Assembly: GCA_963816145.1 (NCBI GenBank)
Contig: CAWFJP010000031.1
Span: forward strand, 256,001 to 320,000
Length of the DNA stretch: 64,000 nt
Direction of reading: 5' to 3'
From: an uncultured delta proteobacterium
Lineage (GTDB): Bacteria > Desulfobacterota > Binatia > UBA9968
Shown here: positions 13,718 through 17,741 of the stretch, piece by piece
How positions within the stretch are numbered: the stretch's first letter is position 1
Layout of the letters: each line of letters opens with the position of its first letter
Made by a program: the position numbers and the translations under genes
The notes under the pieces: generated by a model
The model's input: only the letters and a program-made list of their open reading frames with translations
What the model was told of the DNA's origin: nothing
Database searches by the model: none

Positions 13718-15007
13718 TCATTTTATCGGTGGCCGGAGGCAAAGGCTGAGCACGGCCGAGGTGAACAGCATGCCTATGAAGATGCTGAAGGAGAGGTAGT
13801 AACTCTGCGTGTAGTCGAAGAGCAGGCCGAAGAACGGCGGACCGCAGGCGGAGAAGATGCTGGTCACGAGCGAGCCCATGCCGCGGATTTTTCCCAGCGA
13901 GATGCGGCCGAAAAAATCGGCCCAAATAGTTTCCGCCAAGACCGCCGTGCCGCCCATGCCGATGCCGTAGATAAAAAAGCCAATATAGAGCGGCGCCATT
14001 CCGGGCAGTAACAGCGCCACTAACAGGCCGGCGCCTTGGAACGCGCATTTGGCCATATTGAGAATGCCGTTATCCATGCGGTCGGCGAGCGTGCCCCAGA
14101 CGATCGGCGTGCTGAGCTGCATGACTGCGATGATGCTCATCACCGAAGCGGCCACCAGGGTTGGATGGCCTTGATCGGTGACGTAGGAAAACACATGGAG
14201 ATTGAGCCCGGTGACGCCGATCTGAGCGACGCCGAAGGTGCTGGCGATGAGCCAGAAGACCGGTGTGCGCAGCGCTTCGCGCCGGCTCCACTCGACATTG
14301 TCGGCGCCGGTGCGCTTGGCGTGGCGGGTTTTTTTTGGGGTTGCGACTTCCGCTTTCACCGGCACCGGTCCGCCGTCGGGTAGCAATCCCATTTCTTCCG
14401 GGGCGCGCCGCATGAATAGCAAGGCCGGCGCGACCACCAACAATAAGGCGAACACGCCGAAGACCACCCACGCGCCACGCCAGCCGACGTACAGCATCAA
14501 GGTCGCCGCCGCAACCGGCATACAAACTTTGGCCAGGCCATGGCCCATGCCGGCGATGGCCAGGGCGCGGCCGCGCATGCGCACGAACCAGCGCGAGATC
14601 GACACATTCACTACCATGGAGCCCATGAGCGAATCGCCCGGACTGATGAGCAGCCAACGCACCAGCATGAACTGTATGAAACCCTGCGCTTGACCGAGGC
14701 AGATAAAGCCGGCGCCGGAAATCAATCCACCGGCCGCCATCAGCCAGCGTCCGCCGTAGCGGTCCATCAACGTGCCGACCACGGGCGCTGCCGCCGCGCC
14801 GATGAGGATCTCGCCGGAACGGATGAGCGAGAACATACCGCGGGAAATGCCCAAGTCGCTCGACAACGGTTTGAGAAATACGCTGAGCGTGCTCGAGATC
14901 GAAAATGCCGAAGCGATGTGGGCGAGAAAGCCGACGATGACGATAACCCAGCCGTAATAGATCGCTGCCTTTTTTACCGGTTGCTCGACCAAGGGTGAAA
15001 TGGACAT
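13718..15007 (-). CDS. MFS transporter
   Basis: YYGWVIV, G.LMDRYGGR, SRWFVRMRGRA, multiple hydrophobic helices. Confidence 0.9.
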   Translation of the reverse strand: MSISPLVEQPVKKAAIYYGWVIVIVGFLAHIASAFSISSTLSVFLKPLSSDLGISRGMFSLIRSGEILIGAAAAPVVGTLMDRYGGRWLMAAGGLISGAGFICLGQAQGFIQFMLVRWLLISPGDSLMGSMVVNVSISRWFVRMRGRALAIAGMGHGLAKVCMPVAAATLMLYVGWRGAWVVFGVFALLLVVAPALLFMRRAPEEMGLLPDGGPVPVKAEVATPKKTRHAKRTGADNVEWSRREALRTPVFWLIASTFGVAQIGVTGLNLHVFSYVTDQGHPTLVAASVMSIIAVMQLSTPIVWGTLADRMDNGILNMAKCAFQGAGLLVALLLPGMAPLYIGFFIYGIGMGGTAVLAETIWADFFGRISLGKIRGMGSLVTSIFSACGPPFFGLLFDYTQSYYLSFSIFIGMLFTSAVLSLCLRPPIK

Positions 15008-15258
15008 TCCTAGCTTGTAACAAGGTTCGCGGCAAAACTACAAGGCAACGCGGCACATGGTAAGACCGCACAAGGCGCATCTAAAGCTGTTAGTACTTGG
15101 GATATTCAATGCAAGGTCTCTGCCCCACTAGAACAACCGAATGGTCAAAGCCTACACCCAGGCCGTTGCCACTGCAGGCCGAGCACAAATAGGTTGACAG
15201 CTGCACCGTCGGTTGATACTTCTGCGGTCGACTCAGCGATTCATGCCACGATAGCACT

Positions 15259-16032
15259 ATGGAAAACCTCGGCGATAGATTCACTCTTTTCACTCAGCCC
15301 GGTTGAAGCAGTTGCCTAAGAGCGAAAGAGTTTCTTTCGAAAAAAGGCATCGACTTCATCGCGCTCGATATCTTGAACGATCCAACGGCGCTAGAGCGAT
15401 TGGGCAGGCTTGGCGTGCGCACCGTACCGGTTTTGGCCAGCGGTGATCAATACATCTTTTGCCAGAACCTGGAAGATGTCGCCGAGTTCGTCGGCTTGCA
15501 AGGCAGTGGGCATACAGCGCTCCCGCCAACTGTATTGATGACGAAATGGACCACGGTGCTACGCGCGGCGCAGCGCTATATTCGTCAACTCCCCAGCGAC
15601 CGGCTGGCCGAGCGCGCGATCGAAAATCGTGATCGCTCGCTTCGACTCTTGAGCCACCACATCTTTCGCGTCGCCGAAGCCTTCCTCGAAACCGCCATTG
15701 ACGGTGTCGAATACCGGACCAACAATGCCAACATCCCACCCGAAGACGGAACCTGCACCACCGGCGAGGAAATTGCAGCCTACGGTGACGGCATTGTTGC
15801 GCGGCTTGAGAAGTGGTGGAGCCAACTTGAGGACCGATCCTGCCAGCGACCGGTGAAAACCTTCTATGGCACGCCGCCGATGCATCAGCTTTTCGAGCGC
15901 TCCACCTGGCACTCGGCGCAGCACACGCGCCAGTTGATGGCCGTTCTCGAGCGCTTCGCTATCGAGCCCCGGGGGCGGCTCACGGCCGAAGATCTAGCCG
16001 GGCTGCCTCTGCCGGAAGGCCTGTGGGAATGA
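15259..16032 (+). CDS. Probable selenoprotein: glutaredoxin/NrdH-like domain (UxxC) fused to a DinB-like domain
   Basis: ATG 15259 is in frame with ORF 15373-16032; reads FTQPG-TGA(15304)-SSCLRAKEFLSKKGIDF...RTVPV; C-terminal LSHHIF and WHSAQHTRQL His motifs. Confidence 0.82.
15313..15349 (+). promoter_or_regulatory. Putative bacterial SECIS hairpin
   Basis: TGCCT..CGAAAGA-GTT-TCTTTCG..AGGCA just 3' of the in-frame TGA; G at the start of the apical loop. Confidence 0.65.
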
Positions 16033-16046
16033 CCAGAAGAAAAACG

Positions 16047-16088
16047 CGTTCCAGTCGTTCCAAACGTTCAAGCTGTTCAAATCGTTAA
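16047..16088. repeat. Degenerate 9-nt tandem repeat (CGTTCMARN, about 5 units)
   Basis: cgttccagt cgttccaaa cgttcaagc tgttcaaat cgttaa. Confidence 0.6.
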
Positions 16089-16274
16089 CCGAAGAAGATT
16101 GGCAATCGCCGCCTTAACCGCAAGGCGCCAAGGCAATTGATTTTGTGCCAACGCGGGAGACGGCCATTTTATGCCCAATTATCCTCTTGAACTTGATCGT
16201 TCGCCGGTGCGGGGTTGCGCGAAAGCGGCACGGTAAAACGTTTTCTCCAAGAGAGTAACCGCCGGGAGGGTCGG

Positions 16275-17741
16275 ATGGGACTGACGCAAGAAGTTGCCCA
16301 CTTTGTCGCGCGGACACGCTACCGGGATATTCCCAAAGAGGTTGTCCAACTGGCGCGCGGATTCATCCTGGACGGACTCGGCGTCGCCTTAGCTGGTTCC
16401 ACTGACGAGTGCTCGCGCATCGTTCAAGCGCAAATCCGCCAAATGAACGGCAAGGGCGAGTCGTCGATTGTCGGCACCGGGCTCGCAGCGCCGGCAGCGA
16501 AAGCGGCTCTGGCCAACGGCGTGGCCGGCCATGCGATGGATTACGACGACACCCAGCTGTCAACTTCCAAGGAAGCAGTTTACGGTCTCTTGACGCATCC
16601 GACCACGCCTGTGCTCGCCGCCGTGTTGGCGATCGCTGAGAAAGAAAAAATCTGCGGCGAGGAACTGGTTTTGGCCTATCTCTTGGGCGTCGAAGTCGAG
16701 TGCCGCATCGCCGATGCGATCAACCCACGCCACTATCAAGAGGGTTTTCACTCCACTGCGACCATGGGCGGCATCGGCGCCGCCATGGCGGTGGGCAAAA
16801 TGCTCCGGCTCAAGGAAGAGGAGCTGATTCGCACCTTGGGCATTGCCGCCAGCATGGCGTCCGGCTTGCGCGAAAACTTCGGCACCATGACCAAGCCGCT
16901 GCACGCCGGACGCGCTGCTGAGAACGGCGTGACCGCCGCCGTGTTGGCGCGCGACGGCTTCACGGCGGCGGCGAATATTCTCGAAGCCCGCCGCGGCTTT
17001 TTCAACGCCATGGCCGGCGGTTGCGATGAGAGCAAGATCACCGGGCGGCTCGGTTCGCCTTACTTCATGAAGGAGCCGGGAATTTCCATCAAGCCGTATC
17101 CGTCCGGCTCACTCTCGCACCCGGCGCAAGATTTGATTCTCGACCTGGTCAAACAGCATGATCTTGGCGCGGACGATATCGATCACATCGACGTCGGCAC
17201 CAATTCCAACGTGCCCAATGCGCTGATCTATCCGGTGCCCAAGACCGCCTTGGAAGGAAAGTTCAGCATTCCGTTCTGCATGGCGATCGCTGTCTTGGAG
17301 CGCAAGGCCGGCATCGCGCAGTTCCAAGACCTCAAGGTGCGCGACAAGAAGGTCGTCGAATTGATGAAGCGGGTGACGCTCTACGTCGACGATGAACTTG
17401 AAAAGCTCGGCTACGATCAGGTGCGTTCGCGGATTCGCATCAGACTCAAAAATGGCCAGGTGATCGAAGGGCGCTATGATGTCGCGCGTGGACACCCGGA
17501 GAAACCGATGAGTTGGGCCGAACTGGAAGACAAATTTCGCGACTGCGCCGGGCTCGTGCTGGCGGACAAGGACGCGGAAACGGCGATCCAATTGGTCGCC
17601 CGCATCGAAGAACTGAAAAGCTTAAGCCCCCTGTTCCGTGCTCTGACCAGCGCGCGCGCCAAGAGTGGTAAAAAAAATAAATCTTCTGGGATACCCGTGA
17701 AGGCGTATTCACCACCAAGGACACGACGAGCACGAAGTTAG
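16275..17741 (+). CDS. MmgE/PrpD family protein
   Basis: NGVAGHAMDYDD, THPT, GFHST, TMTKPLHAG, IKPYPSG..SHP, KFSIPF. Confidence 0.93.
   Translation: MGLTQEVAHFVARTRYRDIPKEVVQLARGFILDGLGVALAGSTDECSRIVQAQIRQMNGKGESSIVGTGLAAPAAKAALANGVAGHAMDYDDTQLSTSKEAVYGLLTHPTTPVLAAVLAIAEKEKICGEELVLAYLLGVEVECRIADAINPRHYQEGFHSTATMGGIGAAMAVGKMLRLKEEELIRTLGIAASMASGLRENFGTMTKPLHAGRAAENGVTAAVLARDGFTAAANILEARRGFFNAMAGGCDESKITGRLGSPYFMKEPGISIKPYPSGSLSHPAQDLILDLVKQHDLGADDIDHIDVGTNSNVPNALIYPVPKTALEGKFSIPFCMAIAVLERKAGIAQFQDLKVRDKKVVELMKRVTLYVDDELEKLGYDQVRSRIRIRLKNGQVIEGRYDVARGHPEKPMSWAELEDKFRDCAGLVLADKDAETAIQLVARIEELKSLSPLFRALTSARAKSGKKNKSSGIPVKAYSPPRTRRARS

Follow-up and report, generated by a model that had tools for sequence, protein, structure and literature searches.

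Locus and reading frame

The gene described here lies in a 64,000 nt stretch of contig CAWFJP010000031.1 (positions 256,001–320,000, forward strand) from GCA_963816145.1, the assembly of an uncultured member of the Binatia. This stretch is referred to as the window, and all coordinates are window positions. At 15259–16032 the window very probably carries a genuine but misannotated selenoprotein gene, whose predicted 257-residue product joins a glutaredoxin (Grx) domain with a UxxC motif, in which U is selenocysteine (Sec), to a C-terminal domain of the DinB type. The open reading frame (ORF) list of the window holds a single entry at the locus, a TTG-started frame of 219 amino acids (aa) beginning at 15373. 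The same frame is open from an ATG at 15259 to a TGA stop at 16030–16032, with one internal TGA at 15304–15306 as its sole interruption. Read through this codon, the translation starts MENLGDRFTLFTQPG-U-SSC-LRAKEFLSKKGIDF and contains RTVPV further along; the local motif around U16 is FTLFTQPG-U-SSC-LRAKEFLS.

An original prediction, made from the window sequence and its ORF list, had extended the frame to ATG 15259 through this one TGA, had placed UxxC at the glutaredoxin CxxC with TVP following later, and had supposed that standard gene callers truncate the gene. All three points hold. The translation agrees with the Pfam glutaredoxin model (PF00462), whose match to residues 9–66 scores 48.3 bits (gathering score 22.9) and puts the TGA exactly at the first Cys of CxxC. 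The called ORF thus begins in the middle of the glutaredoxin domain. Truncation extends to the public records: the best 120 protein relatives are 202–238 aa long, cover no more than 92 % of the query and carry either no name, ‘hypothetical protein’ or ‘glutaredoxin’. TGA is a usual stop codon in this DNA, ending 12 of the 32 long open frames of the window as well as the Grx-DinB gene itself.

Conservation of the in-frame TGA

All matches in 40 relatives’ genomes that reach residue 16 have an in-frame TGA. Where the relatives’ loci were read directly, the aligned codon is TGA in 16 of 16, or 17 of 17 if locus L030 of genome G005 is counted. Likewise, the 32 readable loci among 38 public ones all read G-TGA-S-S-C, the others being without an N-terminus (four) or frame-disrupted or partial (two). 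By label, most of the public TGA loci belong to metagenome-assembled genomes of Candidatus Binatia or ‘Deltaproteobacteria’; others carry a Betaproteobacteria/Burkholderiales or Acidiferrales label, and further labels occur in single genomes. A set of 31 distinct full-length orthologous coding sequences (38–92 % identity) was obtained by removing duplicates and dropping L030 and L052, as well as L035 and L039, whose extracted sequences each hold more than one stop (L035 through frame disruption, L039 as an artefact of extraction). Codon 16 is TGA in all 31 of them. The sharing of the TGA among relatives does not fit the lone nonsense mutation or sequencing error that the original prediction had named as grounds for abandoning it. 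The gene itself is rare within the phylum: of 301 genomes sampled, 3 gave a match at E ≤1e-20, each with the TGA.

Across the 31 orthologues, residues 8–15 and 17–38 are conserved as protein with synonymous variation at the nucleotide level. F8, L10, T12, Q13, P14 and G15 are each kept with two to five synonymous codons. Conservation of the residues before the TGA despite such variation implies that the 15 upstream codons are selected as protein.

Two orthologues have a disrupted frame near the N-terminus. In L035/L067 a stretch in a shifted frame precedes another in-frame TGA, and in L075 the frame is shifted upstream of residue 20; assembly error or decay is possible in these cases.

More distant homologues were collected by an exhaustive profile-free search, which returned 1087 representatives at E ≤0.001. 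The best match began within the first 10 query residues in 51 representatives, and 50 of these entered an alignment (A2). Opposite U16, 49 of the 50 have Cys; the remaining protein has Ser there and also Ser at position 19. Additionally, searching genome records with an eight-row alignment gave at least 573 Cys-form loci, mainly from Burkholderiales, with cultured Paraburkholderia, Caballeronia, Ramlibacter and Acidovorax among them. The codon at position 16 is a Cys codon in all of the 80 Burkholderiales loci kept (TGC in 57, TGT in 23). Cysteine therefore stands opposite the TGA in homologues, as had been anticipated. In a quick tree the Sec forms fall into two clades of 30 rows (support 99) and 3 rows (support 92). 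The tree as drawn needs two Sec/Cys changes and its well-supported branches force just one, which is compatible with either one or two origins of the Sec form.

The hairpin downstream of the TGA

A two-tier hairpin with a loop starting in G had been proposed at 15313–15349 and is present there. The lower stem pairs 15313–15317 with 15345–15349, and the 7 bp upper stem pairs 15323–15329 with 15333–15339 around a GUU loop (15330–15332) that begins 23 nt past the UGA. Minimum free energy is −21 to −23 kcal/mol, the value being −23 when 68 nt are folded. The model of the bacterial selenocysteine insertion sequence (SECIS), as given in a 2026 review (PMC13188914), has a loop of 3–9 nt, an upper stem of 4–16 bp, a spacing of 16–37 nt, a G at loop position 1 or 2 (most often GG or GU) and an energy of ≤−7.5 kcal/mol. 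A SECIS search had been suggested as a check; compared by hand, the hairpin lies within all of these published limits. An Rfam scan of 15000–16400 placed no family on the hairpin; it gave one chance match alone, to ceN70 (E 0.09, 21.5 bits vs 65).

Nearly all TGA forms share the 17 nt core CGAAAGAGTTTCTTTCG (15323–15339) unchanged. It is also found in TGA forms of merely 31–39 % protein identity, one of them with a loop change that keeps a 6 bp stem. Codons 22–27, which fall within the hairpin, use a single codon in 27 of 27, 31 of 31, 31 of 31, 29 of 30, 31 of 31 and 31 of 31 sequences, respectively. Gene-wide, only 6 of 135 conserved degenerate columns are of this single-codon kind, and 5 of the 6 lie within codons 22–27, a clustering matched by 1 of 100,000 shuffles. 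The Cys forms encode the same residues (TKEFL) in varied codons, and the hairpin core occurs in none of the 80 Burkholderiales Cys-form loci.

Selenocysteine machinery

The presence of selA, selB, selC and selD had been put forward as a further check, and all four are found in the genome. The genes selA (616.5 bits), selB (417.4 bits) and selD (380.1 bits) score over their cut-offs and stand side by side on genome contig C30 (562492–566803); selD carries an in-frame TGA of its own, indicating a Sec-containing SelD. The tRNA-Sec (74.2 bits, likewise over its cut-off) lies 10 kb downstream at C30 576761–576851 and is called by ARAGORN as tRNA-SeC with anticodon TCA. Outside the Binatia, selA scores over its cut-off in all five genomes with a TGA form.

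In four of four betaproteobacterial loci (L065, L066, L068 and L072) selA is located 1.3–3.1 kb downstream of the Grx-DinB gene on the same strand, followed by selB in the two loci that are long enough. No selA was found within the flanks of the 56 other loci searched. Between the Grx-DinB gene and selA, L068 (4524–5933, minus strand) and L072 (5884–7284, minus strand) carry an ORF whose match to UGSC, itself an established selenoprotein family, is limited to the C-terminal third (profile positions ~101–171 of 172). This partial match suggests a further selenoprotein gene cut short at its TGA, and next to the UGSC-like ORF is a gene for a TctC-type binding protein.

Small glutaredoxin-like frames of ~70–85 residues with one TGA were also seen in nearly every genome searched (e.g. 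C14:314299–314520); these may be selenoproteins of the UXX-star type.

The two domains

Within the glutaredoxin head, U16-S-S-C19 stands just before a helix at residues 17–28, and RTVPV, with the cis-Pro of TVP, occupies residues 54–58; P57 is Pro in 49 of the 50 distant homologues. Foldseek matches for the head are small glutaredoxins and NrdH (3ic4, 1h75, 3zit). The best sequence match in the PDB is 7c10_A, at E 4e-15 with a profile of the orthologue alignment (A1) and at E 7e-07 with the window protein alone, with KEFLS in common. No NCBIfam model reached its cut-off, and the nearest models (YruB, NrdH) all remained below.

The AlphaFold2 model, built from 14 orthologues, has a mean predicted local distance difference test score of 84.6 and a predicted template modelling (TM) score of 0.81, and consists of a glutaredoxin fold followed by four long helices. 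Its best Foldseek match is the DinB/YfiT protein DR0053 (6iz2; probability 1.00, TM-score 0.86 on the target, root-mean-square deviation (rmsd) 2.9 Å), and other matches for the bundle are YfiT (1rxq) and the mycothiol-dependent maleylpyruvate isomerase (2nsf). Among 52 family members, DinB_2 (PF12867) is matched in 40 at E ≤0.01, DinB in 5 and Glutaredoxin in 51. The DinB-type His residues (H...HxxxH) that the original prediction had placed in this domain are encoded as described, and the fold and the family-level Pfam matches support the DinB assignment. In the distant homologues H134 and H218 are each conserved in 48 of 50, H222, R224 and Q225 in 50 of 50, and E213, R214 and W217 are also conserved. 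According to one source (PMC10950700), the DinB superfamily consists of four-helix-bundle metal-dependent thiol transferases whose conserved His residues hold the metal, and includes bacillithiol and mycothiol S-transferases. On the model and these alignments, the predicted C-terminal half is a DinB/YfiT four-helix bundle with the conserved His triad H134/H218/H222. The features of the locus are collected in Table 1.

Table 1. Features of the Grx-DinB locus in window coordinates
Feature	Position	Strand	Basis or remark
Full Grx(UxxC)-DinB coding sequence	15259..16032	+	257 residues plus TGA stop; orthologues align over residues 1–257
In-frame TGA, codon 16, very probably read as Sec; first position of U-S-S-C	15304..15306	+	TGA in orthologues and Cys in homologues
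Cys19 codon (TGC), putative resolving Cys of UxxC	15313..15315	+	Invariant in orthologue alignment A1; Cys in 49/50 distant homologues
Predicted SECIS hairpin	15313..15349	+	Fold, frozen codons, core missing from Cys forms, published model
Glutaredoxin domain, residues 9–66 (Pfam); fold to ~residue 77	15283..15456	+	PF00462, Foldseek, PDB sequence match
Predicted DinB/YfiT-like four-helix bundle; helices 90–110, 128–148, 169–189, 208–232	15526..15954	+	AlphaFold2, Foldseek, DinB_2 in family
His134 codon, first of presumed metal-binding triad	15658..15660	+	48/50 distant homologues; invariant in A1
H218-S-A-Q-H222 (HxxxH) inside ERSTWHSAQHTRQ motif; H218 15910–15912, H222 15922–15924	15910..15924	+	Conservation in distant homologues
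Truncated ORF of gene callers, TTG start, 219 aa	15373..16032	+	Without Grx strand 1, helix 1 and redox motif

Alternative explanations

Several observations weigh against reading the locus as a selenoprotein gene with the architecture described. The ATG at 15259 has no evident Shine–Dalgarno-like sequence upstream. The lower stem of the hairpin has been lost in at least three orthologues (L032–L034), and because the core is invariant, compensatory changes are not countable and frozen synonymous sites had to be used instead. The window protein itself has no DinB Pfam match at E 0.1. Genomes with Cys forms also carry selA in three of five cases, so the Sec machinery does not force the Sec form. 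No neighbouring gene is a consistent partner, the downstream MmgE/PrpD gene being kept solely in relatives of ≥86 % identity. Contigs from four RNA libraries span the TGA and the hairpin, one of them bridging 15265–15509, but these contigs belong to relatives and the libraries may hold DNA, so that they give weak support, and for transcription alone. Finally, the fold of the hairpin is modest versus chance (z = −2.53 on the single sequence, with 3 of 200 shuffles as stable). The comparative signal for the hairpin, as judged from the aligned coding sequences, is far beyond chance and much stronger than this fold statistic.

If the TGA were a true stop, a DinB-only product would be made from TTG 15373 or a similar start, and the 15 upstream codons would form a leader or a regulatory mini-ORF. 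Gene callers everywhere give such a short form, the lengths of the best 120 relatives included, and a strong ribosome-binding site is not seen at ATG 15259. However, a start at 15373 strips the protein of strand 1, helix 1 and the redox motif and leaves Grx residues 39–77 as an orphan half-domain. The residues on either side of the TGA (8–15 and 17–38) are kept as protein across the 31 orthologues, and the full-length Cys forms show that the N-terminus is part of the protein. A true stop is thus very unlikely.

A UGA read as Trp, Cys or Gly, through an altered code or suppression that is independent of a SECIS, also seems highly improbable. Low-level near-cognate read-through of UGA does occur in bacteria and lends this idea some ground. 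Against it, TGA serves as a stop for the Grx-DinB gene and for 12 of the 32 long frames of the window, the genome contains the full Sec machinery, the position pairs with the redox-motif Cys in the classic Sec/Cys signature, and the hairpin fits a SelB-type model. Origin of the TGA as a nonsense mutation, in a pseudogene or through an error of sequencing or assembly has still less to recommend it and can be regarded as exceedingly improbable. The source is a metagenome-assembled genome with 6.7 % contamination, and some relatives (L035/L067, L075) are truly frame-disrupted; yet all 31 distinct orthologues, drawn from many independent assemblies and several phyla, have this TGA, the sequence on either side of it is under purifying selection, and the nucleotide-frozen hairpin goes with TGA forms only. 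Among the differences listed for the relatives’ contigs, none places other letters at 15304–15306 (27 more differences lie beyond those listed).

Neighbouring genes and transcripts

Genes neighbouring the Grx-DinB gene in the window encode MFS transporters, an MmgE/PrpD protein (16215–17741, downstream), an ABC transporter and a flavin mononucleotide-dependent (FMN) dehydrogenase. The MmgE/PrpD protein was considered as a functional partner and set aside, its position next to the gene being limited to relatives of the identity given above. In one homologue, P0181 (721 residues), a Cys-form Grx-DinB is joined to an MmgE/PrpD domain; this fusion may represent a Rosetta-stone link between PrpD and Grx-DinB and is not taken as settling the matter. 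Other Sec-form loci carry genes for NMT1-type binding proteins, Amidohydro_2, PEP-mutase-like and GNAT proteins. Neighbours of the Cys forms include LysR (often divergent), GntR, NMT1 with an ABC transporter of the NitT/TauT type, and TctC; from gene content, these neighbourhoods suggest a link to transporters that names no substrate. Three recurrent neighbour clusters of the Cys forms have no Pfam match and may be antisense ORF artefacts of GC-rich DNA.

DNA nearly identical to the locus is present in 14 soil or wetland metagenome runs from 13 studies. In the RNA libraries, apart from the contig that bridges 15265–15509, other contigs have loose ends that diverge from the window upstream of the TGA. 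Just past the stop codon, at 16047–16086, lies a tandem array of 2.6 copies of a 9-base unit with consensus CGTTCCAAA. Contigs from three of four RNA libraries match just this 40-base array, with unrelated sequence on either side. Given these unrelated contexts, the array looks like a dispersed short repeat.

Comparison with known systems

The closest likeness of the head is to the stand-alone Sec-glutaredoxin Grx1 of Clostridium oremlandii (cGrx1), which shares the glutaredoxin fold, Sec as the first residue of U/CxxC where helix 1 begins, and a SECIS that lies within the coding sequence immediately 3′ of the UGA. As described in its report (PMC7642778), cGrx1 natively contains Sec in a U(C)PXC motif, and its structure was solved with Cys in place of Sec. 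It is a single domain of 84 residues with UPHC, whereas the window protein has USSC and a further DinB domain of 170 residues. The PDB chain 7c10_A has a CPHC motif, and its tie to the cGrx1 paper rests on this motif and on one occurrence in a listing. Members of the DinB/YfiT superfamily (BstA, MST, YfiT 1rxq, DR0053 6iz2, 2nsf) resemble the C-terminal half in their four-helix bundle and H...HxxxH triad, but described members are neither fused to a glutaredoxin nor selenoproteins.

The same architecture is found in the Cys-form Glutaredoxin+DinB_2 proteins of Burkholderiales (Paraburkholderia, Caballeronia, Ramlibacter, Acidovorax and many metagenome-assembled genomes) at 24–47 % identity, and Protein Atlas clusters likewise combine PF00462 with PF12867. 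The Cys forms share PGC-x-S-C, KE, the cis-Pro, R, H, ER, WH, H, RQ and GLPxP with the window protein, and differ from it in having TGC or TGT instead of TGA and in missing the hairpin core. An analogous layout occurs in the Cys-type glutathione transferases (GSTs) of the Omega, Xi and Lambda classes, in which an N-terminal thioredoxin-fold nucleophile domain is followed by a C-terminal helical domain. In the window protein, however, the helical domain is a DinB bundle, and among the 52 family members GST_N_2 is matched in 2 and GST_N_3 in 3. Membership of the GST family was rejected: many GSTs are among the Foldseek matches, but with an rmsd of 10–17 Å over the whole chain.

In families of the UXX-star type, Sec lies close to the C-terminal end, with two more residues before the stop. 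The hidden Markov models of UXX-star and HUGP/GUXX-star (NF041212, NF041211, NF041114, NF045501) match weakly over residues 8–64, and scores are below the cut-off (NF041212, 38.6 vs 66; NF041211, 27.8 vs 100; NF041114, 17 vs 72).

Sec-glutaredoxins (PF00462, UxxC) are listed as experimentally verified in the accessible part of a 2026 inventory of 119 selenoprotein families, and that text mentions none of DinB, PF12867, mycothiol or bacillithiol. No description of a Grx-DinB selenoprotein or of selenocysteine in Binatia was found in literature searches judged by title or abstract; the supplements of BSepDB (PMC13326102) and deep-Sep (PMC12013277) may file the protein under ‘Grx’. The Grx-DinB protein is a new domain-architecture variant among the known thioredoxin-fold UxxC selenoproteins.

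Proposed mechanism

With the recoding signature and the two folds taken as established, a biochemical function may be inferred from better-described relatives. The Sec-dependent redox/thiol-transfer role of the original prediction is likewise a putative one, drawn from the two domain families. The hairpin, directly 3′ of the UGA, would recruit SelB with Sec-tRNA(Sec), and codon 16 would be decoded as selenocysteine to yield the 257-residue two-domain protein. The His triad of the DinB domain may hold a divalent metal, as it does in the superfamily, and the metal site could position a thiol or an electrophilic substrate, by analogy with the DinB thiol S-transferases and the Cys-type glutathione transferases. 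The selenolate at residue 16 of the glutaredoxin domain would then attack the substrate or resolve a mixed (seleno)sulfide, and Cys19 would act as the resolving residue that closes the cycle. Sec in place of Cys would provide a more reactive nucleophile.

Carried further, these analogies raise the possibility that Grx-DinB is a self-contained enzyme in which its own selenolate (or, for the Cys forms, thiolate) reaches the metal site in place of a free low-molecular-weight thiol, and which acts on small organic acids or organosulfur compounds delivered by the neighbouring transporters. The Sec form might also be mobile, moving with selA-selB and a UGSC-family selenoprotein gene as a ‘selenium island’. 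Such an island, if real, would account for the occurrence of the Sec form, with a SECIS of identical nucleotide sequence, in Binatia, Betaproteobacteria, Acidobacteriota and further phyla. This extended scheme is speculative and, taken as a whole, is unlikely to be correct.

Significance

The gene was found by standard Sec/Cys logic, and the understanding of Sec decoding is unchanged by it. What is affected is the annotation: close public gene calls miss the catalytic residue and 38 N-terminal residues, and genomes of the Binatia type from soil and wetland, along with several other lineages, thus carry a meaningless ‘DinB-like hypothetical’. Recognizing the family adds an architecture of glutaredoxin plus DinB metallo-domain to the selenoprotein catalogue. 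For organisms in which the specificity of SelB is uncharacterized, the frozen 17 nt core offers a clean natural SECIS, and the Cys forms of cultured Paraburkholderia and Caballeronia provide a tractable way to the function of the family.

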